DNA of 64,000 bases from an uncultured delta proteobacterium (GTDB lineage: Bacteria; Desulfobacterota; WTBG01; CAIYCZ01; CAIRTM01). The stretch lies in NCBI GenBank assembly GCA_963804955.1, contig CAWDSQ010000030.1, positions 256,001 to 320,000 of the forward strand, read 5' to 3'. Below the pieces are notes generated by a model that saw only the letters and a program-made list of their open reading frames with translations, made no database searches and was not told the DNA's origin. Positions 26,266-50,448 of the stretch are shown piece by piece; the stretch's first letter is position 1; every line of letters starts with the position of its first letter. The position numbers were made by a program, and so were the translations under genes.

Positions 26266-27528
26266 GCTGTCATGCTCAGGCGGTAGCGGGCTCTGTGCAT
26301 CCGCAACAGTATGCCGCAGAGTGCCGGACAGTATGGGTAGTGCCAGGTGCATCAGCCATGAGCATAGCAGAGCGCTGAACGCCCAGATGCCGATCGTGAT
26401 GAGGGCTTCCGCAACTGTAGGCGAATACTCAACGATTTCCCCCAGCGGCGTTGGTATAAAACCAGGCACGATCATTCCCAGGCCCTTTTCGATCCATATC
26501 CCGACAAAGGAAAGTATGCAGGCGGTGTTGAGGCAGGTTATCTGCCGCGCAACGGGCGGTATGACCAGAATGCCCGCGGCGATTGCTTCGATCGTGATGG
26601 CAAACCAGATCCAGGGCACCAGCTTATGTGTGGCCGTGGAGGCCGAAAAACAGGTACTGCGCAGAGCTTGAATGGATGGAGGCGGCATAGAATTCCTTGA
26701 ACGCCTCGCACCCGAGCAGGAACAGGTTCACCAGCAGCGATATCGTGACGATCTGGCGCAGGATCTGCAATGCCTCATCCGTAATTTTGTAGCCCGAATA
26801 GCGCCGGATGAACTGAAATACCACGATCATCAGGGCCGGACCAGCCGTAAATGCCGAGCCGATAAAGCGGGGCGCCACGATGGCCGCGTTCCAGAAGGGC
26901 CGCCCGACAAGGCCCACGTAGAGAAACGCGGTGACGGTGTGAATGCTTATCGCCCAGGCTATGGAGATAAACACGAACGGCAGGTACAGCAGCTTTTTCG
27001 GCTTCCTGCCGAGATAGCGCATGTAGAGCAGGTAGCCGCTGATGTAGACATTGAGTATGAGATAGCCGAACAGGACGATGACGTCCCAGGCGAGCATGGA
27101 GGCTGGGAAGTTGAACATGCCCAGGAACGGCACCAGGTGCCAGGCTCTGTCAAGCCGTCCGAGATCGATGTTCACGAGCAGCAGGCACATGTATGATCGA
27201 TGCCACGGCGATGAGCTCGCCCGAGTATGACCACGTCCTGCAGGGGCTTGTTGTCGTAAATGTAGGCCGGTATGACCAGCATGACAGCGGCTGCCGCAAG
27301 CCCGACGACGAACGTAAAGTTGGCGATATACAGGCCCCAGGATATCTGCTGCGTCATGCCCGTTACGGCAAGGCCGGAAACGATCTGCTCGGCATAGCCG
27401 TACACGCCGGCCAGCGTGAGGACCGTCAGCAGCGCCATCCACCCGTAATAGAAGCGGCTGCCGAGAAAGCTGAGCATGAAAACCCGCCGGAGAAAAACGC
27501 CGCAGTCGCGCATATCCTGCTGTGTCAT
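26251..27528 (-). CDS. NrfD/DsrP-family membrane subunit (frameshifted)
   Basis: SWGLYIANFTF, IDLGRLDR, SIHTVTAF, APRF, WIEKG. Confidence 0.88.
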
Positions 27529-27535
27529 GCTGCTC

Positions 27536-28497
27536 TCACATCTCAAAGAAATAATAGAAGCGCGGTATGGTCTGAGCCTCTTCTTTCAAAATGTACACCC
27601 GCTTGTTTCTGAGAATGTAGTTTATGGGGCTGTCGGGGTCGCGGATATTGCTGAAGATGCGCGACCCTGTCGGGCAGGCCTCGGCGCAGGCCGGCAGCAG
27701 GCCCTGACGCACGCGGCCAATGCAAAACGTGCATTTTTCAACAACGCCCCGGGGCCGTATCCTGTTGCCCAGGTACGCCATCTCGGTCGTGATTTCCCCG
27801 GCGGGGATCGAGGGGGCCGCATAATTGAACCTCCGCGCAAAGTACGGGCAGGCGGCCATGCAGTAGCGGCAGCCGATGCACCAGTTGTAGTCGACAACAA
27901 TGATCCCGTCGGGCTCCTGCCAGGTTGCCTTGACCGGGCATGCATGTACGCAGGGAGGATTTTTGCATTGATGGCACTGAACGGGCATGTAGTACCTGTC
28001 TTGCGGGGCACTGTTTCGCTTGTGTAATAATGGTCCGAGGTTTCTACATTGATGGCGCCCTTTTTCATCTCCAGCACCCGTATGTACTGGATCTGCGGGG
28101 ACTGCGAGGTGTTGTTTTCTTTCATGCAGGCATAGACGCACCGGCGGCATCCTATGCACTTGCTGAGATTGAGGGCATAGGCATACTCTGACCCGGGCAA
28201 GGGCTTGAAATCCTGTATGTGCGCCGCAACCCCGTAGTCGCGGCTGATTTCTTTCTCCAGGCGTGCCAGCACCTGCTGCATCATCTCCGGCGTCAGCCGC
28301 GTATAGTGCTGCTGCAGAAGCTCGTCAATGCTCACCGCTCCCTGCAGCTTTCTGAGCGGCGACAGCGCTATGCCCAGGCCTGCCGCTGCAACAGCCCCGG
28401 CCTTCAGCAGGCCCCTGCGGGAAATCGTACCGAGATCGATCTGCTCGGTCAAGCGCGGCTTTTCGCCAGTCTGCCTCTCTTTTTTCCGGTCACTCAT
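27536..28497 (-). CDS. 4Fe-4S dicluster protein with Tat-like motif (NrfC/DsrO-like; frameshift near 28010)
   Basis: SRRGLLK; CIGCRRC, CHQCKNPPC, CIGCRYC, EKCTFC. Confidence 0.88.
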
Positions 28498-29104
28498 GGC
28501 GGCCTTCTTTGTCATGCTGCTGCGCCACTGCCGGCTCAGGGGCAGGCATTGGAATCAGCAGGGGAAAGTGGGGCTCATGCGGGTTATGGCACTGGTTGCA
28601 CTCGAGTTTCCTGTAGAGGCTGTTTGGCGGGTCCCAGGAGCCGTTCAGGCGGCCGTGCGTGCCGGCAACCCAGTCGCGGTATGTGGGGCCGTGGCATTTC
28701 CGGCAGAGCAGCACCGGCATGTCGGCCGGAATCTGGCTGCCGTCATGGTCGACATAGGTTTCCAGATCGGCGATGTTGTGGCAGTTGAAGCACCTGATAT
28801 TGAGGCCGTGGTTGAAAGGCATGCCCCGGTGCGCGCCCAGGGGCAGGTGGGACCGCCTGGGTTCCCGGAAGTCGACATGGCATTCACTGCAACGCTGCAC
28901 ATAGAAAGTATTCAGGTAGAACAGCAGGTTTCTGTCTTTGCGCACAGGCGTAAAATCAAGCCAGTCGGCGGGCGGAGCTATTATTTTTCGGGGGGCTGAC
29001 GGCGGGCCTTTTTTCTCTTCGGTGCGCCCGGTGCCCGCAAGCCATGCGAGCACAGTGCATGCTGCAACTGCCATTATGCAATAAGAAATGCGGTTCTTTT
29101 TCAT
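28490..29104 (-). CDS. Tetraheme cytochrome c
   Basis: Signal/TM; CSECH, CFNCH, CRKCH, CNQCH. Confidence 0.88.
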   Translation of the reverse strand: MKKNRISYCIMAVAACTVLAWLAGTGRTEEKKGPPSAPRKIIAPPADWLDFTPVRKDRNLLFYLNTFYVQRCSECHVDFREPRRSHLPLGAHRGMPFNHGLNIRCFNCHNIADLETYVDHDGSQIPADMPVLLCRKCHGPTYRDWVAGTHGRLNGSWDPPNSLYRKLECNQCHNPHEPHFPLLIPMPAPEPAVAQQHDKEGRHE

Positions 29105-30424: not shown

Positions 30425-30542
30425 GGCGTTCTTTCTGTATGTTACGTATTGTGCAGGAGCGGTTTCAGCCGCGAAACAATCGCTGCTTCAACGTATGCAC
30501 CTGTCTAATTTTTCCAGACTAACTCACCTATCAGGGCTTTTT

Positions 30543-33012
30543 TTATTTTCGCAACGTTGCTGAAATTTTGTATTCATATAACGTATCTGCAGGTTCTGTC
30601 CCAACCACAGTGCTCCACGTGGTTTTTAATGAATCAATAGCATTTTCAAAAGATGATTTCCGGTTAAGCTCTAGCGGGTTTTTATTATCTCCATCCAAGA
30701 TATCTATTTGTGCATGAATAGCAAAGTTGCTCTTTTGATACGTATACGTGGTATGGCAGTCCCAACCACATTCAACAGGTATATTATAAGGATGCGTGGC
30801 GCAATTCGAATAACCATGAATAAGCAAGTGTTGAAAATAGTAAATATGAAGTATCGTACTTTGGGCAAATAGAGCATTCTCTCCATGAACACTTGTTGTG
30901 TATTCATCCTGCGAGCTGGGCTCCCCATCATAGGACGTATCGCAGTGATTATATCCACTGAGACTATATTTATACAAAGGCCCAAACAGCGTAGAGGCTT
31001 CATATTCGTCCGAATAAGTTCCTTCAGATGTACACTCTCCATCACATACACCAGCATCTGTATAGGCTGAAAGAGCAGTATGCTTCGCTGTGTATCCTGT
31101 TCTAATCCCGGATTTGTTATTACAGTTTAAATCATAGCCAAAATAAGCTTCCGACTCATAAGAACGACTATAATACGGGCAGCACTCTTCGCAGGAAGCT
31201 GAATTAGACACAAAAATATAGTTCATTAATGGGCTTCCTGAAAAATCAATAAGACCCGATTCCGTTGATTCTTCACAAGATGCAATACTTCCGGAACACC
31301 CGGGATCACCGAGATTACAAGTTAATATTCTATCAGGAAAAGATTGCACAGTATACAAATTACGCCCAAAATCACCTGTGAGGCTTTGCCATTCATTCAA
31401 ATTCTGCAAATCACATGGGAATATAATTTGAGATCCATCCGTTTTTTTGATATCTGCATAACTATCCTTGAGGGGATCCCAAACGAATGCCCTGGTCACA
31501 CCACGTCCTTCGATTTTCACGAGGGCATATTCTTTTTTGAATTCAACGTATTTGCTTACTGCTACGCCAGTATCTGTTTCCTGTCCGATAGTGCCATAAT
31601 AACCTACTTGTACAGTAAGATCATAAAAATCGGCCGGCACCTTGCTGCTTGAGAAAATAAAGGTTGCTTCCGTAGGGTTACCCGCATCAGTGCTGAGCTC
31701 TCCGGCCTCAGTATTTTCATCTGAAACAGCATATGAAAACTGTTCTTCCGCAGGATCGGTTTTGTATTTCGCAACGGCAAAAAGTTTGCCGCCGGGCATG
31801 ACTTCAATTTGGCCACTGTAAACGGTCGTATTGATTACTTTAGCTTTGATCTTTGTTATGCCACTGCTGTCACCGCCAATAATTGCAGGCTCTGTCACCT
31901 CAAGCTTCCCGCGGAAGAAGTAATCAAGTAGCCCTGCGGAGTAGCCCACCGCCTTCGGTAAAAGTTTTTGCGCGTAGTCTTTATGGCAATTATCATCAAG
32001 CGTAAATAGTTGCGACTCTGATACTAAAACAAGATGGTCGCTGGTAAGATATCGTACACCCATAAGACGATAACTGCTTTGCCCCTCTATTTTTCGCACA
32101 TAAATCAAATGATCCGTCACGCCGTCTTCTGCATCTACCGCTTCCGGATTAGCCCAGTTTATAGTGTTCAAGTCTGTATCAGCCCTACTAGGATGAGGAA
32201 ATCCAGGCTCATCAAGCAATCTGAATGCGCTTAAAAAATTGGCGGATGAATATTCTGCAAGCCCGGTATTAAAACTGTCGTTAATATCGTCGCCAGTGTA
32301 TAGGCCTGTATCCCAGAAAAACCTTGCCTCCATTGGCAAACCAAGATTGAAAACCGGCACTGAGCCGGATGCCATATAATTGTATAGCAAATCTCCCTGC
32401 GCTTGTCTTCTTTGCACATACTGTTCAAAATTATTTCCAAAATAGCTTGTAAAATTCAACCCGGTGCCGTTCTGAGGAAACAAATGGCCTTTGAAATCAT
32501 TGCGGGTATGAGCGGGAACTGCCATGTCCTGTATCATATGCATGACATAGCCCAGGCTTCTAAAAGTCTTATCAAAACCCCACGACCTGATATTGCTGCT
32601 TTGCGAAGTCAGTGCTTCACAATAATAAGTGCGTGCTTTCTTCCACGAATATTCATTGCTGTTCATATCGCCCAATGCCCATGCAAGAGCTGAACCGCCC
32701 CGGAAAATATCATTTAATCCAGTGTTATGTATCGGCTCATAAAAATGATTCAATGCGCGGCTGTCGGCATCTTCTCTTTCTGACCCATCAACTAGTATGC
32801 CAAGATCGTTTTTCCATACAGTGTCGCATTCAAACCTTCTTGTAAAACCAAGATAGGTCGTTAGATATTCAATTATTGTTGATTTGTTAGGAATAGTATA
32901 TTCTGTAATTTTTCGATGAGTCAGTTTGTCGTCCCATGCAAAGAGTATTATCGGCAAAACAAAATAAAATATACAATAACGAAATTATGATTATTTGCTT
33001 CTTTGCGAGCAT
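30543..33012 (-). CDS. Large secreted protein with N-terminal Zn phospholipase C/P1-nuclease-like domain and Cys-rich C-terminus
   Basis: AW...TH mature N-terminus, RALNHFY, GYVMHMIQDMAVPAHTRND; GGAG RBS and ATG at 33012 with frameshift in the signal peptide; low GC. Confidence 0.65.
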
Positions 33013-33020
33013 AAAAACTC

Positions 33021-33662
33021 CTATTTTTTTAATTTTCTTTCATTCCTTATATCATTAGACAGTTGATCATCTTCCTTTAAAAGAAAAGGCAATTCATAGT
33101 CTCTAAAAATATCATCGATTTTTATCGTACTAGGGGCATATTTATCCCAAATTCCAGAATCCAAGCACCTACTTAAAAATGATCTATGCTCAACATGCGG
33201 ATATTTAACATACGTATTCTTTTCTAAAAGTATTTTGGCTGCCTTATCAAACTTTTGGAGTTTAATAGTTCTTTGTTCATCATTAAACTCCGCAAGGTCA
33301 CGCATACCAGAAGAAAAATTAAACTTGCTGTCCCACAAAGCATATCCGGGTTTGTATATTGTTAGCCGTGGCCGTTTGGAGAAAATATACGTCAGCCAAA
33401 AATCTTTTATGTATATTCTGCCCTCTTTATCTGAAAAAGATTCCTTCGCTTTAACAAGCACCTCTGTGCCGCCTTCCCACCAAGCCCGCTTTGTCCAGCT
33501 ATGCTCCATCCACTGCGCAAGCGCCACTGCTCCCTCTATCGGCTGGCCTGTGTCATTATCTACAATGACGGCGGTCGGAACTTCCCTGGCTGATGCGCAT
33601 GCACTGAAAAACACACAAGCCAAACAGAGTAAAATGAAAGGTGCTAATAACGTTTTTTGCAT
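33021..33662 (-). CDS. Putative lipoprotein, paralog B
   Basis: Signal ending FSAC; IVDNDTGQPIEGA carboxypeptidase-regulatory-like start; IYKPGY. Confidence 0.8.
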   Translation of the reverse strand: MQKTLLAPFILLCLACVFFSACASAREVPTAVIVDNDTGQPIEGAVALAQWMEHSWTKRAWWEGGTEVLVKAKESFSDKEGRIYIKDFWLTYIFSKRPRLTIYKPGYALWDSKFNFSSGMRDLAEFNDEQRTIKLQKFDKAAKILLEKNTYVKYPHVEHRSFLSRCLDSGIWDKYAPSTIKIDDIFRDYELPFLLKEDDQLSNDIRNERKLKK

Positions 33663-33759
33663 GTCATTATCCTTTTAGATATTATTTTATTGACTGACTC
33701 CTTAAAACTTTGTGTTTTTCAAGACAATACACATCTGTCACTGTACAGCTTACAGGGCA

Positions 33760-33946
33760 GCAATCTTACATGTACCGTCTGTATCTTTATATGTAATACG
33801 TCAGAGTGATATTCTGACCGTCGATGTTAACCTTTGTTATTTATCTATGCGTTAGATTATCATCCTAAGCAAACAAGCTTCTGCAGAAAAAATTGGAAAT
33901 AAGAGCAAAACAAATAATAATTAAAATTTGGTTTTTATTTTATCAT
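33760..33946 (-). pseudogene. Deletion scar: 5' remnant of PLC-like gene fused to 3' remnant of the Ig-domain gene
   Basis: Minus strand reads NQILIIICFALISNFFCRSLFA*DDNLTHR*ITK then VNIDGQNITLTYYI. Confidence 0.8.
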
Positions 33947-33960
33947 TCAGCGACTCCTTT

Positions 33961-34596
33961 TTAACTTTCATCCTTTGGATCTCTTTCTTTTATTATAAAA
34001 GACAATTCATATTCTCTAAAAATATCGTCTATTTTTATATGATCAGGTGCATATTTATCGCGGATTCCTGAGTCTAAACATTCGTCTAAAAACGATTCAT
34101 GATAATCATGAACATATTTAAGTGTTTCTATTATGGGTGTATCATTTTTGAATTTATCCAAAAGCATTTCAGCTGCCCTATCAAATTTTTGCAGTTTAAT
34201 ATTTCTTTGTTCATTATTGAAATCAGCGGCGTCACGAACACCGAAATGAAAGCTTACATTACTGTCCCATAAAGCATATCCGGGTTTGTATATTGTTAGC
34301 CGTGGCCGTTTGGAGAAAATATACGTCCCCCAAAAATCTTCTATGTATATTTTGCCCTCTTTATCTGAAAAAGATTCCTTCGCTTTAACAAGGACCTCTG
34401 TGCCGCCTTCCCACCAAGCCCGCTTTGTCCAGCTATGCTCCATCCACTGCGCAAGCGCCACTGCTCCCTCTATCGGCTGGCCTGTGTCATTATCTACAAT
34501 GACGGCGGTTGGAACTTCCCTGGGTGATGCGCATGCACTGAAAAACACACAAGCCAAACAGAGTAAAATGAAAGGTGCGAATAACGTTTTTTGCAT
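33961..34596 (-). CDS. Putative lipoprotein, paralog A
   Basis: First about 110 aa nearly identical to paralog B; C-terminal half divergent. Confidence 0.8.
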   Translation of the reverse strand: MQKTLFAPFILLCLACVFFSACASPREVPTAVIVDNDTGQPIEGAVALAQWMEHSWTKRAWWEGGTEVLVKAKESFSDKEGKIYIEDFWGTYIFSKRPRLTIYKPGYALWDSNVSFHFGVRDAADFNNEQRNIKLQKFDRAAEMLLDKFKNDTPIIETLKYVHDYHESFLDECLDSGIRDKYAPDHIKIDDIFREYELSFIIKERDPKDES

Positions 34597-34676
34597 GTCA
34601 TTATCCCTTTAGATATTATTTTATTGACTGATTAGTTAAAGCTTTGTTTTTTTTTACACACCTTATGCAATACATC

Positions 34677-36622
34677 TTACCAGGTATCAATCTTCCACGT
34701 ACCGTCAGTATCTTTCACAAAGTATATGTAATAAGTTAGCGTTACATTCTGACCATCGATGTTATGAACACGCCTGATTCGGTATTTTGCCAGTCTATCC
34801 TGCACGTAAATCAGTTGGATATCCTGCATATTTGCAATTATGCCCGGTAATTGTGCAGAAAGGTCACTATAAACCTGATTATATGTTTCTTTCGAGGCGT
34901 TAGAGATAAACTTAAGAGCATTAGCAGTGTTGAGAGATGACAGCGCCTCCTTCATCGCACCCCACTTAACTCTCAACTTCGTATCAAACGCTGTTCGGTT
35001 ATCGGCCATGATGGCGATGTTGTCTGTGCGCAGCACGCGGGTTCCGTTATCCAGGGTTTCATTATCATCAACCGTGATGAAATACAGCCCCGGCTCCGCA
35101 ACACGGCGCTCGAATTTCATGGTTGTTTCGTTATCGCCACGGTTTTCTATTGATCCATTATCGGGGTCATAGCTGAATGAGTACCCCTGGCTGGAGTAGG
35201 TTTTTGCCAGACTCAATGTAAAGTCAAGCGGTGCCGTGCCCGAGACTATGCCCGATTCAGGGTTGCTTGAGAGGGTAAGATAATTGCTGGTGGTATCGGC
35301 AATTACCGAAACTGAATCTGTGGCATTGTCGCCAGAATCATTAAATGCATAGGCGGTTATGGTGCTGTTGTCGCCATTGCGCAGGGGCACATGGTTGGCT
35401 GCAAACACTCCATTATATACATGCGCGACCACGCCATTAACAACCACGCCGATATCATCGCCGGTAAACGCATCTCGATCAATGGTGCCCTGAACGAGCG
35501 TGTCGGGCCGCTCGATATGCGAGCCTTCCAGAGGCGAGGTTATCACAAGGTGGGCCGTGACCATAACACTCACAGCACTGCTTTCAGTGCCGCCGGGGCC
35601 TGCGGCAGTGATGGTGTAGGTTGTATTCATGCGCGGCGTTTTTTGAATGGAACCGTTAGCCGGATCAACACTGTCATTATCAGGCTGCAATACGCATGTG
35701 TCGACAATTCCAGTAGTGTTCCATGAAAGGGTAACAGTTTCGCCCTTATTGATACTGGTTCGGTCAGCCTGAAGGGTAACCGTTGGTTTCTGATAAACTG
35801 TAACAGTAACGCTTGCAGGATCGGATGTTCCGCCCGGGCCTGTGGCAGTTATGGTATAGTCGGTGGTATCTGACGGAGAAACGGGCATAGACCCCTCACG
35901 CCCAACCACGCCGATACCGGGTTGCATGGTGCAGGAATCAGCGTCAGTTGAACTCCATCTGAGCATTGCCTGTTCGCCGGTTTTAATAGCAGCCGGCTCT
36001 GCGTAGATAAAAACTGTGGGTTTCCTGAACTGCTGCTCACAGGCAGGCTGTCCGCATCCCCCACAGCCGGGCGTCGGGTCGCAGACATCACCAAGGCCAT
36101 CATGATCGGCATCAAGCTGGAGGGGATTGTAGATGTTCGGACAGTTATCAACGACATCAGCTATACTGTCATTGTCTGAATCGACCGGAGGCTGTTCACA
36201 GGCAGGCTGCCCGCAACCCCCACAGCCGGGCGTCGGGTCGCAGACATCACCCGGCCGTCATGATCGGCATCAAGCTGCAGGGGATTGTAAATGTTCGGGC
36301 AGTTATCACAGGCATTGTGTATGCCATCATGATCGGTATCTCCGCCATCAATAAGACCATCGCAATCATCATCAATGCCGTTGCATACTTCCGGAGCGCC
36401 GGGATGCACGGTGCTAGTATTGTCATTACAGTCGAGGTTATTGATCACATAACCATCAGGTGGTGAAAATTCATTGATTACAACCAAGGGATCTCCATAA
36501 CCGTCTGCATCGGCATCACGGTAATAGGGTGTTGCCGTTTGAGCATAAGCCTGCTGCAACAATGTGCAGGAAAAAATTATGGCAACTATGAACAGGGATT
36601 TTTGTGAAAGTTTTGAACGCAC
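34677..36622 (-). CDS. Secreted surface protein: MopE-like metal-binding motif, TSP3-like repeats, Ig/PKD-like repeats, C-terminal domain (frameshifted)
   Basis: YYRDADADGYG...DCND...PGAPEVCNGIDDDCDG; two DNCPNIYNPLQLDADHDG..DVCDPTPGCGGCGQPACE repeats; TTxYTITAxGPGGT repeats. Confidence 0.75.
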
Positions 36623-37025: not shown

Positions 37026-37259
37026 ATGCATCTCACCGTTTCAAGCAAAGGCTGGGTTGTCATACCGGCGGAATTCCGCAAAAAATACCGGCTGCAGCCG
37101 GGATCAAAAGTCAGAATGGTCGACTATGGCGGCGTGCTTGCCGTAGTTCCCGAGCTGCAGGATGCCGTTGCGCAGGGCTATGGCATGCTGAAAGGCACGG
37201 GCTCACTGACACAAGCGCTTCTGCGGGAGCACCGCAAGGAATACCGGCGTGGCAAATAA
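37026..37259 (+). CDS. AbrB/MazE-family antitoxin
   Basis: VSSKGWVVIPAEFRKKYRL; overlaps PIN gene. Confidence 0.88.
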   Translation: MHLTVSSKGWVVIPAEFRKKYRLQPGSKVRMVDYGGVLAVVPELQDAVAQGYGMLKGTGSLTQALLREHRKEYRRGK

Positions 37260-37692
37260 GGAAAGCGCCTATGTGCTGGACAGCTTTGCCGCGCTGGCCT
37301 ATCTGGAAGGCGAACTTTCCGCTGATCGGGTTCTCGTGATTTTGCAGGAGGCTCGCGCGGGCCGGTGCCAGGTTTTCATGTCCCTTGTAAATCTGGGGGA
37401 AGTGCTCTATATCACGGAGCGGGAGCAGGGCCTCACCAAAGCGCAGGCGGCGCTGGCAGCTGTCGAGCAACTGCCCATAAAAATTCTTCCAGCATCACAG
37501 CAAGCCGTTTTCGCAGCTGCCCATATCAAGGCGCAGAACCGCGTTTCCTATGCCGATGCTTTTGCCATTGCCGCGGCTCAGGCCCTTGGCGCGGCAGTGG
37601 TCACCGGCGACCCGGAATTCAAACAGGTGAAAGACAGCGTCAGGATTGAATGGCTTGTCAAAAAATCCCGGTCAGTCAAATCCCCCAAATAA
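37249..37692 (+). CDS. vapC: VapC (PIN) toxin
   Basis: YVLDSFA, NLGEV, SYADAF, VTGDPEF. Confidence 0.9.
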   Translation: MANKESAYVLDSFAALAYLEGELSADRVLVILQEARAGRCQVFMSLVNLGEVLYITEREQGLTKAQAALAAVEQLPIKILPASQQAVFAAAHIKAQNRVSYADAFAIAAAQALGAAVVTGDPEFKQVKDSVRIEWLVKKSRSVKSPK

Positions 37693-39831: not shown

Positions 39832-40293
39832 ATGAAAACAAATTGCAAACTCATTAGACAGGCAGCTTGACAGCACCCTGAAAAAGTTTCAGCCTTTGCG
39901 GGCTGCACCGATTCCGGCAAAGGGCTGGATCAGGGCAATACGTGATGCTCTGGGCATAACCGGCCAACAACTTGGTCATCGTCTGGGGCTGAGTAAACAG
40001 CGTGCCGCCTTCATCGAAAAGCAGGAGCTGGATGGCGCCGCTACTCTTAAAACCATGCGCAGGGTTGCAGAGGCGCTTGATTGCGTTTTCGTCTACGGTT
40101 TTGTACCGCGGACCAGCCTTGAAAAAACTGTGCTCAGCCAGGCGGAATCCGTTGCCGCCGAGGCAGCTTGGCAGGGCCGCTCATACAATGCGTCTTGAAG
40201 ATCAAAGCCGGGACATAGGGAGAATCAGGAGAGTCTCATTAACCTGACCCGAAAACTTGTCGACACACCCCCGAAGAATCTTGGGAGGAATAA
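39832..40293 (+). CDS. Mobile mystery protein A (HTH; frameshifted)
   Basis: PAKGWIRAIRDALG, TLKTMRRVAEALDCVFVYGFVP, HTMRLEDQ. Confidence 0.85.
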
Positions 40294-40882
40294 TGCCTGA
40301 TTTCAACTATCCTGAAGGAGCAACTCCCCTTAGCCCGGATGAAGCTGCAGGTCTGCTTCTTACGCATATAACAACTCGCGGTGAGCTGGATAGATGGGAG
40401 CAGGACACTATCATTGAAGCCCAGGTTTGGCTTGACGGAAAAAAACCGAAAGACTTACTGAATGAGCTGTTTCTGAAAAATCTTCACAAGAGGATGTTCT
40501 CCAGAGTCTGGAAATGGGCGGGGCAGTATCGTCAAGCAAATAAAAATCTCGGCATTGACTGCAGCAGATACCCGTGAGCATCAGAAATCTGTTCGATGAT
40601 GCAAAGCTCTGGATTGAGGTTCGACACGACTCATCCGATGAAATTGCCGTTCGTTTTCACCACCGTCTCGTTGCAATTCACCCCTTTTCAAACGGCAATG
40701 GCCGCCACGCACGGCTTATGACGGATCTGCTGCTTGAAAACATTTTGGACGTTAAACGGTTCACCTGGGGCAGCGGTCAGGAGCTTTCAAAGTCCGGCGA
40801 GACCAGAGGCACATACATTGCCGCACTTCGTGAAGCAGACACGGGGAACTATAAACCCCTGCTAAAATTTGCCCGGTCATAA
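40293..40882 (+). CDS. Mobile mystery protein B (Fic domain; frameshift near 40565)
   Basis: PEGATPL, WKWAGQYR, HPFSNGNGRHAR Fic motif. Confidence 0.88.
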
Positions 40883-40905: not shown

Positions 40906-42621
40906 CTATTGCCCGTACTGGCTGCCCGGCTGCGCCCAGTCTTTTGCGGAATCGCACACACGGCTTTTTTCCGCAAAAATAGCCTTGATTTCATTGTCTC
41001 CTGCGGTCGAAAGCTGCTCTTCGGCCGTGCTTATTTCGGTTGATCTCTTCCCGCGCTTCCACCAGGGCCCTCCCCGGCGGATATAGGTCTGCGTATCGCC
41101 ATAGAACATGCTTGCGCTCATCCCGTAGGTGTTCGGGTCCTCATAATTGGTCCACGGCTCAACCCCCTCTTCCTCCTCATAGCGGATCATATCGTGGTCC
41201 TGATCCGTGGCCACGACTTTCTCGACGAGGAATTTATGGCGCAGCTCATGGGCGACAATGGCGGCCACGGCCTCTATTCCTTCCACGCGATCCCGGGTGA
41301 GCGTGAGCGAGTGCGTTCCGGTCTTGTCGGTCAGGGGCTGGTTCATGGGGCCGAAAGCATAGCTTGCTGCTGTTTTGCCGATGGTCAGGGTGTGGCTTGT
41401 CCAGTCGTAGTAGCCGCCCTTATCGGAGTCTTCATAGGTGAACTGGTCAAGCTTGGGCACCGGCCCCTGCTTCCAGTAATAATACCAGTTTGCGCTTTTC
41501 GTTCCGCCGGAGTCAGGGTGGTCCGTGCCGTCCCGCTCGAAGAATACCCGGAAATCCTTTGAGTTGCTCAGCTCCAGGTCGGGAATGCTGGCGGTGATTG
41601 TCTTTGATCCGAAATCGTCATTGCCCTCAGGAAGCTTCTTGTACGTGACCACCACTTTCGACACACCCGTTACAGGGTTATTGGTGACTTTGATCTCCCT
41701 GTCCGACTCATTGCCGATTGCCGGGACATCCCAGTGCACCTGGTCTGCCATGTTCGCGGGAGTTACTTTGGCCTTGGCGAAGAATACAAGCCTGCCGTTA
41801 TGGAAAACAAGATCGGTCTCAGGGCCCGGCTTTATAACGAACTGCTGCTTCAGCTTTATAATCTCAAGAGTGGCGTCCTGTTTGTCGCCGGGCACCAGGG
41901 TCCAGTTGAAGGGGACTTGAAGGTTCTCTTGGCCGTAAAAAGATGCGTTAACATTGGTAATGCTGCCCTTGAGGGTCAGGCCTGATGCCGGGAGCGGCGT
42001 ATAATAATCGGTTTCAAAAGGGCCGAAGCCGACGATGCTCGTGTCTGTTTCGCCTGAGCAGGTATCGTTTAAATTGGAGTCGAACGTGACATTCTGTGTC
42101 ACAAAATGATAGGTGTTCAGCGTTTCCCCCTCGTAATAATTTATATCGAGAAAATAGTAATCAGCCACCGGCTCCATGGGTTGAAGCTCGGAGCTTTCTT
42201 CGGTTTCGGTCCATGAAATGCATCCGCCATCGCTGCGTTCGCATTCCACATTGATGGTGTCCTGGTATGAGCCCGTGAGCGTGCCTTCTCCTGACCAGGT
42301 GGCGACCATAGTATCGGGAGGGCTGATCGTATGATCCAGATTAAGGGTGCATTGTCCGTTAACCGTCCAGTTTCGCGTTTGCGTATAGGCGCAGTAATAA
42401 TTGTCACCCGTAAACGAGTACTCTGAAACCGTGCTGGGCAGGCTCGCATTGAACGTGCCCTTCCAGCTTTTTACCAGGGCAAAGCGCCTGGGGCCGGTGG
42501 ACTGGGCGCTTGCCATTGAGCTGCCGCAGAGGAGAATAAGCGAGACGATAATACATACTCTTACTCCGGCTTGATACGTCCGTGCGCTTTGTATTCTTTG
42601 TTTGAAGGTAAAGTAATTCAT
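40906..42621 (-). CDS. Secreted hypothetical protein with HExxH motif
   Basis: N-terminal signal; beta-rich body; AHELRH near the C-terminus. Confidence 0.7.
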   Translation of the reverse strand: MNYFTFKQRIQSARTYQAGVRVCIIVSLILLCGSSMASAQSTGPRRFALVKSWKGTFNASLPSTVSEYSFTGDNYYCAYTQTRNWTVNGQCTLNLDHTISPPDTMVATWSGEGTLTGSYQDTINVECERSDGGCISWTETEESSELQPMEPVADYYFLDINYYEGETLNTYHFVTQNVTFDSNLNDTCSGETDTSIVGFGPFETDYYTPLPASGLTLKGSITNVNASFYGQENLQVPFNWTLVPGDKQDATLEIIKLKQQFVIKPGPETDLVFHNGRLVFFAKAKVTPANMADQVHWDVPAIGNESDREIKVTNNPVTGVSKVVVTYKKLPEGNDDFGSKTITASIPDLELSNSKDFRVFFERDGTDHPDSGGTKSANWYYYWKQGPVPKLDQFTYEDSDKGGYYDWTSHTLTIGKTAASYAFGPMNQPLTDKTGTHSLTLTRDRVEGIEAVAAIVAHELRHKFLVEKVVATDQDHDMIRYEEEEGVEPWTNYEDPNTYGMSASMFYGDTQTYIRRGGPWWKRGKRSTEISTAEEQLSTAGDNEIKAIFAEKSRVCDSAKDWAQPGSQYGQ

Positions 42622-43154: not shown

Positions 43155-43508
43155 ATGGAATTCATCGTAGAGTTTTATGATACGGCGGATGGATGCTGCC
43201 CGGTTCGGGAATTTCTGGACGGGCTGAAAGCCAGCGATCCGGGCGATTTTGCGGCGGTGCTGGCCGGGCTGGCAAAACTTCGCAACAGGCAGTATCATCG
43301 CGAACCGCTGTCAAAAGCTATTGGCGACGGGCTTTTTGAACTGCGCCATGTGGGAAAACTCAACACCCGGGTGCTCTGGTTTTTTGTGAAAGATCAACGA
43401 ATTATTGCCGTACATGGTATCCGGAATAAGAGGCAGGCCATACCGGCCCGAGACAGGCAAATCGCCCTCGATCGGATGCGCGACTGGCGGAAACGGATGA
43501 AAATATGA
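43155..43508 (+). CDS. RelE/ParE-family (HigB/Gp49-like) toxin
   Basis: VEFY...PVREFL, PLSKAIGDGLFELR, RVLWFF, AVHG. Confidence 0.85.
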   Translation: MEFIVEFYDTADGCCPVREFLDGLKASDPGDFAAVLAGLAKLRNRQYHREPLSKAIGDGLFELRHVGKLNTRVLWFFVKDQRIIAVHGIRNKRQAIPARDRQIALDRMRDWRKRMKI

Positions 43509-43858
43509 AAAAAACAAACTTTGACCGCTATCTGCAGGAGCAGATGAAGGACGAGGCATTTGCCGCGCGCTTTGAGCAGGCAGGGCAGGCCTGGGATGTG
43601 GCGCTGCAGATTGCTTCTCTTCGCAGGCAGGCCGGGCTTTCGCAAAAAGAACTTGCCAAAGCTCTCAATACTTCTCAGCAGCAGGTAAGCCGCCTTGAGT
43701 CACCATCCTATGAAGGTCATTCGCTCAGCATGTTGCGCCGCGTCGCCGATGTTCTGCATACCAGGGTGCGTATCGTGTTTGAGCCTGTAAAAAAGCGGCA
43801 GGCCGGAATCCATGCCGCCGAGGCAGCCGCGCCGTATCGCGCCCGGCGAAGCAAATAG
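43505..43858 (+). CDS. HTH (HigA-like) antitoxin
   Basis: LRRQAGLSQKELAKALNTSQQQVSRLES; ATGA overlap with toxin. Confidence 0.85.
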   Translation: MKKTNFDRYLQEQMKDEAFAARFEQAGQAWDVALQIASLRRQAGLSQKELAKALNTSQQQVSRLESPSYEGHSLSMLRRVADVLHTRVRIVFEPVKKRQAGIHAAEAAAPYRARRSK

Positions 43859-49634: not shown

Positions 49635-50448
49635 ATGAATCTCAAGGATAAAGTCGCAATCATCACTGGAGCAAGCAAGGGCATCGGGAAGGCAATGGCA
49701 TATATTCTTGCTGACGAGGGTTGCCATATTGTATGCGCTGCGCGCTCTGTTGATAAACTCGAGCAGGTGGTAGCCGCTATTCGGGCAAAGGGGCGCAGGG
49801 CCCTGGCCGTGGGCACGGATGTGAGCGACCGGAAGTCGGTACAGAGCATGGTTGCCGCCGCCATGGCGGAGTTCGGCAGGATTGATATTCTCATCAACAA
49901 TGCCGGCGGCCCTCTTGCCGGCATTCCCGGCATGGCGCGGCCCGTGAACGACTCAAATGAATTTTTTGATGTGATGGAGAAAATGACGTTTATCAATATT
50001 GACGACGCAAGACTGGGACCTGATTTTTAATATAAACTTTTACGGCGCGGTCTATGCAACAAAGGCAGTGCTGCCTATTATGATAAAGCAGGGATCGGGG
50101 CATATTATCAATACAAGTTCAAAGGCGGGAAAGATAAAAGCCGATATCGTGCCCGGCATGATAGCCTATGCAACCGCCAAGGGCGCTCTGTCGCGCTTTA
50201 CGGAAGCGCTTGCCTATGAGCTGATGTGCGAAGTCTCCCCGATACGGGTCAACGCCATAAGCCCCGGCAATGTTGCCGTTACGATGCATGAGAACCTGCC
50301 GCCTGAAGAGCTGGAGGGCTACCGCAAGCCGGAAGATATAAAGGATATTCTGCTGTTCGTGCTGGATGAGGAAAAGTCGGTCAGCGGCGAAATCTACGGC
50401 TCGGAGACCATGAAATCCTGGTATCAGGAGATACAGGAGGGGATATAG
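49635..50448 (+). CDS. SDR-family oxidoreductase (frameshift near 50005)
   Basis: TGASKGIG, INNAG, YATAK, VNAISPG. Confidence 0.88.

Follow-up and report, generated by a model that had tools for sequence, protein, structure and literature searches.

What is the function of an exported, enzyme-like protein whose gene is preceded by the genes for a small exported partner and a large, adhesin-like secreted protein? This question is raised by a block of four co-oriented genes on the minus strand (positions 36622-30543) of a 64,000-nucleotide stretch of DNA from an uncultured delta proteobacterium (contig CAWDSQ010000030.1 of assembly GCA_963804955.1; hereafter, the window). In order, the genes are SURF, encoding the adhesin-like protein, LIP-A and LIP-B, encoding two copies of the small partner, and BIG, an open reading frame (ORF) of 804 aa. 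The GC content is 0.36-0.45 across positions 30500-35000, which hold BIG, both LIP genes and the 3' part of SURF, and 0.51-0.54 across 35000-36500, compared with 0.55-0.61 in the flanks and 0.524 in the whole genome. An initial reading of the window's letters (the original prediction) had described a co-oriented, largely low-GC block, as we also find, and had proposed that it is an undescribed polymorphic effector-immunity module. Here, we describe a computational analysis indicating that BIG has a predicted bacterial zinc phospholipase C (PLC) fold, that the SURF-LIP-BIG order recurs in many genomes, and that the 3' half of LIP and the 5' end of BIG appear to vary as a single segment of DNA. 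The reading that we favor, at a probability of about 0.45, is that LIP and BIG form a cognate, polymorphic partner-enzyme pair in which LIP acts as an inhibitor or immunity protein.

The four genes are real rather than chance ORFs, since BIG has 558 protein matches and its neighbors are conserved in other genomes. These BIG relatives, retrieved by a word-indexed search, are nearly all annotated as hypothetical and come from Thermodesulfobacteriota, Nitrospirota and other lineages; they are similar to BIG over residues ~1-467 and dissimilar beyond. With E-value limits of 0.001, 1e-10 and 1e-30, a profile search of 1.84 billion representative sequences returned 8872, 6844 and 3882 matches, respectively. 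The Pfam model Zn_dep_PLPC (PF00882) matched BIG below threshold (E 0.0077; 16.6 bits for the whole protein and 18.6 bits for the N-terminal domain, against a cut-off of 26.8), and it matched 19 of 45 N-terminal domains from the family, in each case below threshold. None of these 45 domains, nor BIG itself, matched the Het-C model at E≤1, none of the 45 matched the S1-P1_nuclease model, and the NCBIfam models gave nothing relevant for BIG. Sequence searches against solved structures, with the single protein and with two BIG profiles, found no PLC. Judged by these searches, BIG represents a large, unannotated family for which no Pfam or NCBIfam model scores above threshold.

The original prediction had pointed to an ~800-aa secreted protein with residues typical of PLC and P1 nuclease folds. 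The motifs are indeed present (FAW8DDKLTH14, NH71F and H140MIQD144MAVPAH150), but the signal peptide lies out of frame with the 804-aa ORF; in BIG homologs, a signal peptide is followed by A|W/Y/F-D-x-x-x-H. An AlphaFold model of BIG, built on 121 sequences with a mean pLDDT of 74, has high confidence in a helical domain (residues ~8-350, mostly >85; positions 31908-32936 for residues 8-350) and in a beta-sandwich (residues 351-535, positions 31353-31907), and low confidence from residue 540 to 804. All ten Foldseek matches of this model at E≤0.001 were clostridial alpha-toxins (best match 1olp, E 3.6e-6), followed by Bacillus cereus PC-PLC and Listeria PlcB. Structural alignment with VIA-align gave Z 17.8 to B. 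cereus PC-PLC (1ah7; root-mean-square deviation [rmsd] 3.4, 215 of 245 residues aligned), Z 17.7 to Clostridium perfringens alpha-toxin (1ca1; rmsd 3.3, 208 aligned) and Z 16.8 to Listeria PlcB (8cqm; rmsd 3.7, 207 aligned), with the next unrelated chain at Z 7.4. The all-alpha N-terminal domain of BIG is thus predicted to adopt the bacterial zinc PLC fold, in agreement with the fold type that had been proposed, and it is nearer to the bacterial zinc PLCs than to P1 nucleases in the matches listed. No S1/P1 chain was among the matches listed by Foldseek or VIA-align, a result still compatible with a relationship to those nucleases, in which an N-terminal Trp and the H-x3-D-x5-H pattern also occur.

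In zinc PLCs, the mature protein starts with Trp1, whose main chain binds zinc, and PC-PLC has nine His/Asp/Glu zinc ligands. Residue Trp8 of the BIG model pairs with chain residue 1 in all 13 PLC alignments obtained with VIA-align. Furthermore, all 45 N-terminal domains share H14, E62, D63, H71, H140, D144, H150, R152, D154 and E178 without exception, the H140-x3-D144-x5-H150 pattern is invariant in 121 of 121 sequences, and H158 is conserved in at least 90% of these 121. Candidate metal ligands are W8, H14, D63, H71, H140, D144, H150, H158 and E178. Because the predicted PLC fold and the conserved residues are accompanied by a sub-threshold Pfam score and by no profile match to a solved PLC, BIG would represent a new, distant branch of the zinc-PLC fold, and the earlier label of a lipase-type effector is better replaced by that of a predicted zinc phosphodiesterase.

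The region that follows the helical domain is conserved across the family and aligns with Ig-like and fn3-like domains at Z 6-7; a beta-sandwich also follows the catalytic domain of alpha-toxin. In contrast to the solved zinc PLCs, the domain of BIG is ~100 residues larger, an additional, variable C-terminal region is present, two partner genes are conserved beside it, and its hosts are anaerobic Gram-negative lineages. The C-terminal region of BIG itself (residues 536-804, positions 30546-31352) is Cys-rich, has a pLDDT of 28-60, and is found only in the closest relatives, being covered by P0001 and P0003-P0006 alone; in other homologs, the corresponding part contains PD40, FG-GAP-like, Big or uncharacterized domains. 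One metagenome protein, P0002, is near-identical to BIG from residue ~350 on and far more divergent in the PLC domain (55% identity overall), a mosaic consistent with recombination inside the BIG gene.

The genomic context of BIG was surveyed with one genome per species, in 77 loci kept from 581 that encode a BIG relative; the carriers include the cultured isolates Desulfosarcina alkanivorans PL12, Desulfogranum japonicum DSM 18378 and Desulfurivibrio sp. D14AmB. LIP was found by tblastn in 61 of the 77 loci, with LIP homologs directly upstream of BIG homologs in 58-61 of them, and the last 150 aa of SURF were found in 64, just upstream of LIP/BIG. Among called ORFs, the order is SURF, LIP and BIG on the same strand, with abutting or overlapping genes. 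Fifty-eight loci from other genomes were informative, in that their BIG ORF is 400 aa or longer and no less than 1.5 kb of sequence is available upstream of it: all three genes were present in 43, LIP and BIG only in 1, SURF and BIG without a detected LIP in 12, and neither partner in 2. By eye, an ORF with the LIP motif occupies the gap in 6-7 of the 12 loci without a detected LIP. In two of the 12, the LIP slot holds an unrelated, ~200-aa polytopic membrane protein (L055:3883-4479, in a metagenome-assembled genome [MAG] of Zixibacteria, and L070:9156-9779, in an Aminicenantes MAG). No other neighbor family is widely common to the 77 loci, those next in frequency being histidine kinases (13 loci), an unannotated small ORF that follows BIG (8) and IS200-type transposases (6). 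The expected three-gene synteny is therefore found well outside the window, and SURF-LIP-BIG appears, from its gene order, to be a widespread, unannotated three-gene operon of many sediment bacteria, Nitrospirota, Desulfobacterota and other anaerobes. The small ORF after BIG encodes a secreted protein of ~100-110 aa with no Pfam family (e.g., L010:4292-4627 and L011:7650-7952); there is none in the window.

The distribution of the module is patchy. In an even sample of the phylum searched with BIG as the single query, matches at E≤1e-10 came from 14 of 301 genomes, which represent 13 of 201 genera, and tblastn searches with the N-terminal domain of BIG found no match among plasmid records or among phage records. 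One MAG contains four module loci, and the window's own genome encodes a second SURF-LIP-BIG module on contig C20 (61344-64643 and 65155-65496), with a BIG of 716 aa that is ~35-42% identical to that of the window. This second module also lies below the genome GC, and the ORF after it resembles, by eye, an IS200/Y1-type transposase.

The most distinctive feature of the locus is the way in which LIP and BIG vary. LIP-A (33961-34596, minus strand; 211 aa), the upstream, orphan copy, and LIP-B (33021-33662, minus strand; 213 aa), the presumed cognate partner directly upstream of BIG, are two copies of an ~934-bp tandem unit that includes the last ~30 codons of SURF. A degraded remnant of the SURF 3' end, recognized from direct repeats and sequence reading, lies between them (33745-33865, minus strand). 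Direct repeat D6 (33788-33829 versus 34723-34764) is 86% identical, and the D1/D2 spacing is 913-935. The original prediction of lipoprotein paralogs that are nearly identical over their first ~110 aa and then divergent is borne out, as LIP-A and LIP-B are 79% identical overall, 96-97% over the first ~112 aa and ~58% over the remainder. At the nucleotide level, identity is 97-100% in the first ~340 nt of LIP, 43-82% thereafter, and 57-78% in the SURF remnant. Codons 1-112 have a synonymous divergence (dS) of 0.057, as against 1.22 for the remaining codons, a difference indicating that the two halves of LIP have had different histories, and a dN/dS of 0.22 in the divergent half indicates that both copies have been under purifying selection.

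The same pattern is repeated in arrays of LIP, truncated BIG, LIP and full BIG, which occur in 7 of the 77 loci (L011, L027, L043, L058, L064, L075 and L078) and were aligned in six. In four of these arrays (L011, L064, L078 and L027), the 5' halves of the LIP copies are 83-100% alike, their 3' halves together with the first 300-400 nt of BIG are 30-75% alike, and similarity returns to 85-100% in the part of BIG that precedes the truncation; in the L075 array conservation is confined to the last of these blocks, and in L043 the pattern is weak. The truncated BIG copies retain a start codon and signal peptide; those of six loci stop a few residues or less from the VPAHxRND motif. Among adjacent LIP pairs in nine loci, the N-terminal part is closer than the C-terminal part in 14 of 14 measurable pairs (e.g., 98% versus 37%), with seven further pairs unmeasurable, and in L072 five LIP genes stand ahead of a single BIG.

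Variation is also seen between close relatives, for which we compared metagenome contigs that are 90-97% alike to the block; sediment and wetland metagenomes contain such close relatives. In contig X2, which has long flanks at the joint, SURF runs into a single LIP and this into BIG, and positions 33697-34656 are skipped. In contig X4, with shorter flanks, positions 32840-33093, comprising the LIP 3' end and the BIG 5' end, are swapped for 259 unlike letters, and the BIG body is ~92% alike. LIP-A is absent from both of these contigs, X4 having one chimeric LIP copy. Taken together, the alignments indicate that the C-terminal half of LIP and the N-terminal ~100 aa of BIG vary as one DNA block between conserved arms, which appear to be the LIP 5' half and the BIG segment encoding HxxxDxxVPAHxRND. 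The metal-site residues inside the variable stretch of BIG stay invariant. The polymorphic character attributed to the locus is therefore evident both in arrays and between close strains. LIP C-terminal motif types and BIG N-terminal types were also compared; this comparison was left unused, as it is inseparable from shared ancestry.

The LIP proteins of the window each have a signal peptide with a lipobox-like end (...CVFFSAC|AS) and, by the lipobox consensus, qualify as lipoproteins, as had been predicted. This label does not extend to the whole family: only 38 of 73 LIP homologs have a lipobox-like Cys, by a pattern of our own that misses a few, and 35 have plain signal peptides. Since only about half of the homologs carry this Cys, a lipoprotein nature does not appear to be a defining trait of the family. 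LIP comprises a beta-sandwich with weak similarity to CarboxypepD_reg-like domains and a variable C-terminal half of ~90 aa that belongs to no family. The CarboxypepD_reg-like model (PF13620) matched 7 of 10 LIP homologs, one of which reached the cut-off (33.1 versus 32.3 bits), and gave no match to the window LIPs at E≤1; in a protein atlas, the clusters nearest to LIP are named CarboxypepD_reg-like, with PF13620 on 18-21% of their members. Complex predictions for BIG residues 8-475 with LIP-B residues 23-213, run without controls on two alignments (A1 and A2), gave ipSAE scores of 0.01 and 0.23 against a mark of 0.32, and speak neither for nor against binding.

SURF (34677-36622, minus strand) consists of a Sec signal peptide (...QQAYA|QT), a MopE-type Cys motif, TSP3-like repeats, Ig-like repeats and a conserved C-terminal module, which is made up of a Glucodextran_B-like Ig domain, a second Ig domain and an NTF2-like domain. 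Pfam matches are to Cu-binding_MopE (2e-11) and Glucodextran_B (2.4e-6). Across loci, SURF varies in length from ~300 to >3000 aa, its last 300 aa being conserved (39% mean column identity in 62 sequences). A model of these 300 aa (pLDDT 95.7) contains two Ig-like domains and a final alpha+beta domain (model residues 194-300; positions 34680-35000, minus strand, located with the wide VIA-align search and tblastn) that aligns over ~93-99 residues with many NTF2-like or cystatin-like chains, among them 2gxf, 3f7s and 8p32, at Z 9-10. This end of SURF, the most conserved part of the protein across loci, is predicted to have an NTF2-like fold, an assignment of fold alone that implies no function. 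Foldseek matches to the model were dominated by tandem Ig domains, the NTF2-like end being visible only in the wide VIA-align search; a SURF profile found only Ig-type domains among solved structures, and the protein atlas offered no lead for this end (score 0.75). The only PHROGs matches were to the Ig-like repeats, a generic similarity to virion Ig-like domains. Copies of an ~300-nt TSP3/Ig-like repeat of SURF (block query 460-770), 70-78% identical to it, are present at a dozen other sites in the window's genome and in congeners (C30:105789-117448 and contigs C7, C8, C20, C32 and C36), and this genome therefore encodes many proteins built from the repeat. A DNA search in 30 relatives likewise matched mainly the TSP3/Ig repeats and not the module.

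Two of the four genes are interrupted in the window as assembled. The Ig/TSP3 surface protein of the original prediction has the TSP3 and Ig features expected of it, together with a MopE motif and a signal peptide, but it is not encoded by one ORF, as a single frame change occurs near 36251, inside a repeat of 158-159 bp. Similarly, the BIG ORF (30543-32957, minus strand) opens with a TTG codon, and the n- and h-regions of its Sec signal peptide are encoded in another frame by 32958-33012; secretion would require a frame change, and the true start is most probably the ATG at 33012. The ORF is open from Trp8 onward. The neighboring genes for NrfD and for a 4Fe-4S protein are each broken into two ORFs whose matches fall on successive portions of a single Pfam model, a short-chain dehydrogenase gene further along is split likewise (these split genes lie at 26624-28515 and 49635-50448), and SURF of the second module in this genome (contig C20, 55319-61781) is in ~ten pieces. 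In three runs, relatives' contigs have one extra letter at 36251/36252. Contig X2 has one letter fewer at 32946 and a compensating indel pair at 32842 and 32804, which brackets the only low-confidence stretch of the N-terminal domain model (residues 41-49). Because neighboring genes are split alike and relatives differ by single letters at the break places, both breaks are probably assembly indels, and the genes are probably intact in the organism. Split genes are a signature of an indel-prone assembly, and calls of pseudogenes in this genome need care.

We propose that these features reflect a partnership between LIP and BIG. One contiguous block spans parts of both proteins and is swapped and duplicated as a unit, and the metal-site residues remain fixed, a pattern most simply explained if the variable parts form a specific interface. 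As the variable part of BIG surrounds the N-terminal residues of the metal site, LIP may be a cognate inhibitor, and an immunity-type role against a membrane-active enzyme fits the occurrence of orphan copies, the polymorphism between strains, the patchiness of the distribution and the two cases in which a non-homologous protein replaces LIP. All three proteins would be exported by Sec, the products of an operon acting in the envelope or at the cell exterior. BIG would be a tri-zinc phosphodiesterase of PLC fold, followed by a beta-sandwich and a variable C-terminal binding region, and cleavage of its signal peptide would expose an N-terminal aromatic residue, Trp8, that completes the metal site. 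LIP would be a small protein of the periplasm, anchored by lipid in roughly half of its homologs, with a constant beta-sandwich and a variable C-terminal half. This half may bind its own BIG over the variable N-terminal ~100 residues, around the entrance to the active site, and may thereby keep the enzyme inactive in the producing cell. Exchange and duplication of the cassette would give rise to specificity types and to orphan copies, LIP-A among them, SURF could hold or present the enzyme at the surface, and BIG may be used antagonistically, in the manner of a toxin. The cassette boundaries predict which residues of LIP and BIG touch, namely the C-terminal half of LIP and BIG residues ~8-105. 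Should LIP have an inhibitory or immunity role, the module would pair a zinc-PLC-fold enzyme with a cognate protein, a case seemingly undescribed within the literature searched. It would then also be a polymorphic cassette system built in reverse to contact-dependent growth inhibition (CDI) and Rhs systems, and would offer a testable route to how sulfate reducers and their neighbors compete or process lipids in anoxic sediments. A literature search returned no description of this family or operon, with subscription journals largely outside its coverage and absence therefore not proven.

Several points weigh against this reading. The activity and toxicity of BIG and its binding by LIP are predictions, and the conserved positions of BIG are, from the alignment, putative equivalents of the nine zinc ligands of PC-PLC. 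Neither in the window nor in any of the 77 loci is a recognized toxin-delivery domain or secretion-system gene fused to the module or found beside it, and the C-terminal domains of BIG homologs look like binding modules that would equally suit nutrient scavenging. The N-terminal part of LIP is also better conserved between distant homologs, so that part of the contrast between its halves reflects constraint, separate histories being indicated only by the dS contrast and the nucleotide profiles. The copy in the window is also interrupted by frame breaks. Finally, the toxin-immunity layout that had been proposed has the co-varying partner expected of it, but LIP is encoded upstream of the enzyme and the variable part of BIG is N-terminal, which is the reverse of the polymorphic toxins described in PMC3482391. 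As characterized there, such systems have a toxin of which one part varies together with a small partner gene next to it, and orphan or truncated tandem cassettes; both are found here, the latter in the 7 array loci and as LIP-A in the window. Also part of that characterization is a C-terminal toxin borne on a conserved N-terminal region, for trafficking or made of repeats, that is linked to a secretion system; this arrangement is lacking in BIG.

A doubtful but serious alternative is that the operon encodes a surface or periplasmic complex for scavenging or envelope remodeling, in which BIG obtains phosphorus or carbon by hydrolyzing environmental phosphodiesters such as phospholipids or nucleic acids, SURF attaches to particles or substrates, LIP serves as a dedicated chaperone, pilot or anchor fitted to its own BIG, and variability reflects substrate adaptation and relaxed constraint. 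A PLC fold with intact ligand-type residues, the binding-type domains at the C termini of homologs, the adhesin-like SURF with its great range of lengths, the lack of delivery machinery nearby and the presence of several paralogous modules in a genome would all be expected of such a complex. An anchoring role is, however, weakened by the 35 LIP homologs without a lipobox Cys, and a chaperone leaves unexplained the orphan LIP arrays, including the five genes of L072. Nor does it explain the sharp cassette boundaries with their 20-fold contrast in dS, the strain-level swap of just the LIP 3'/BIG 5' junction, or the two loci in which an unrelated polytopic membrane protein takes the place of LIP.

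These same cassettes could instead mark a variable surface structure under selection by phages or grazers, with the C-terminal half of LIP and the N terminus of BIG forming an exposed epitope or receptor, the arrays serving as a recombination reservoir of the antigenic-variation type, and enzyme activity being secondary. We judge this improbable. The architecture of conserved flanks and variable core, the upstream truncated copies as potential recombination partners of the expressed gene, the replacement of the junction at strain level and the generic resemblance of the SURF repeats to virion Ig-like domains agree with it; unlike silent cassettes, however, the truncated copies keep start codons and signal peptides, the invariant metal-site residues within the variable stretch indicate that a catalytic function is kept, and LIP, whether a lipoprotein of the inner leaflet or a soluble protein of the periplasm, would be exposed only if localized to the surface. 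Least probable of all, in our estimation, is that the window copy is a decaying, non-functional island. Such decay would account for the frame breaks at ~36251 and between 33012 and 32957, for the LIP duplication with its degraded SURF remnant, and for a low-GC island beside toxin-antitoxin genes. Against it stand the housekeeping genes nearby that are split in the same way, the single-letter differences of relatives exactly at the break places, the dN/dS of the divergent LIP half, and a frame that stays open for 804 aa in DNA of 39% GC.

Comparison with described systems helps to define what a cognate LIP-BIG pair would resemble. By Pfam score BIG falls outside PF00882, Het-C and S1-P1, and by its predicted fold it is a zinc PLC. 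In the catalog of polymorphic toxin systems, zinc PLCs and S1/P1 nucleases are placed in the same superfamily (PMC3482391, section 27), and Tox-HET-C is described as a predicted metal-dependent, all-alpha hydrolase related to both (Zhang et al. 2012, PMC3482391), for which the table of that paper gives no immunity protein. BIG is like Tox-HET-C in being a predicted all-alpha metal hydrolase in a possible conflict context; it differs in lacking any Het-C match and in that Tox-HET-C is linked, in the same source, to trafficking modules of type VI secretion (T6SS), PVC or the type II secretion system, none of which was seen here.

The catalytic folds of the T6SS lipase effectors (Tle) are alpha/beta-hydrolase or phospholipase D folds, which differ from that of zinc PLC, and these effectors are delivered by the T6SS rather than exported by Sec. 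In these systems, examples being Tle3/Tli3 (PMC9860674) and the Tle/Tli pair of Enterobacter cloacae (bioRxiv 10.1101/2023.03.28.534661), a lipid-directed periplasmic enzyme is paired with a specific binding partner encoded next to it, either periplasmic or a lipoprotein, and extra immunity-like copies occur, an arrangement that BIG and LIP parallel as far as their genes and the model indicate. The window was correctly predicted to contain no T6SS, CDI or Rhs marker: no such Pfam family, nor filamentous haemagglutinin, PAAR, LXG or similar, is present in the ORFs scanned. In the orphan arrays of CDI and Rhs loci, a variable C-terminal toxin and its immunity gene are delimited by a conserved motif such as VENN. 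The SURF-LIP-BIG arrays share with them tandem truncated copies that each have their own partner gene, breaks that recur at a strongly conserved motif, and variable cores between conserved recombination arms. They are nevertheless a mirror image, with the partner upstream and the variable part N-terminal; moreover, their truncated copies keep a start codon and signal peptide, and only part of the catalytic domain is exchanged. The module thus resembles Tle/Tli pairs and CDI/Rhs orphan arrays in its logic and has the defining features of neither.

A far-reaching extension of the partner-enzyme reading, which we regard as rather unlikely, is that the module is a mirror-image polymorphic toxin system independent of secretion systems. 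In such a system, a Sec-exported zinc-PLC toxin would be paired with an upstream periplasmic or lipoprotein immunity protein, the N-terminal ~100 aa of BIG and the C-terminal half of LIP would be a specificity pair swapped as a single cassette between two arms, and a giant adhesin, docking through its NTF2-like end, would present the toxin to neighboring cells; the family would amount to thousands of unannotated sequence clusters. Were this so, the HxxxDxxVPAHxRND arm would play the part of VENN in CDI.

The surroundings of the block offer few further clues. Promoter and terminator scans of the block scored at the level of shuffled sequence, no tRNA gene was found within 20000-46000, and PADLOC gave a single match at chance level. 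The minus strand at 40906-42621 encodes a 571-aa ORF without a Pfam family at E≤1e-5. Three small toxin-antitoxin-type pairs adjoin the block at 37026-37692, 39896-40882 and 43155-43858, consisting of a MazE/AbrB-like and a PIN protein, a helix-turn-helix (HTH) protein and a truncated Fic/Doc fragment, and a Gp49/HigB-like and an HTH protein; their presence suggests that the block lies in a region of accessory genes.

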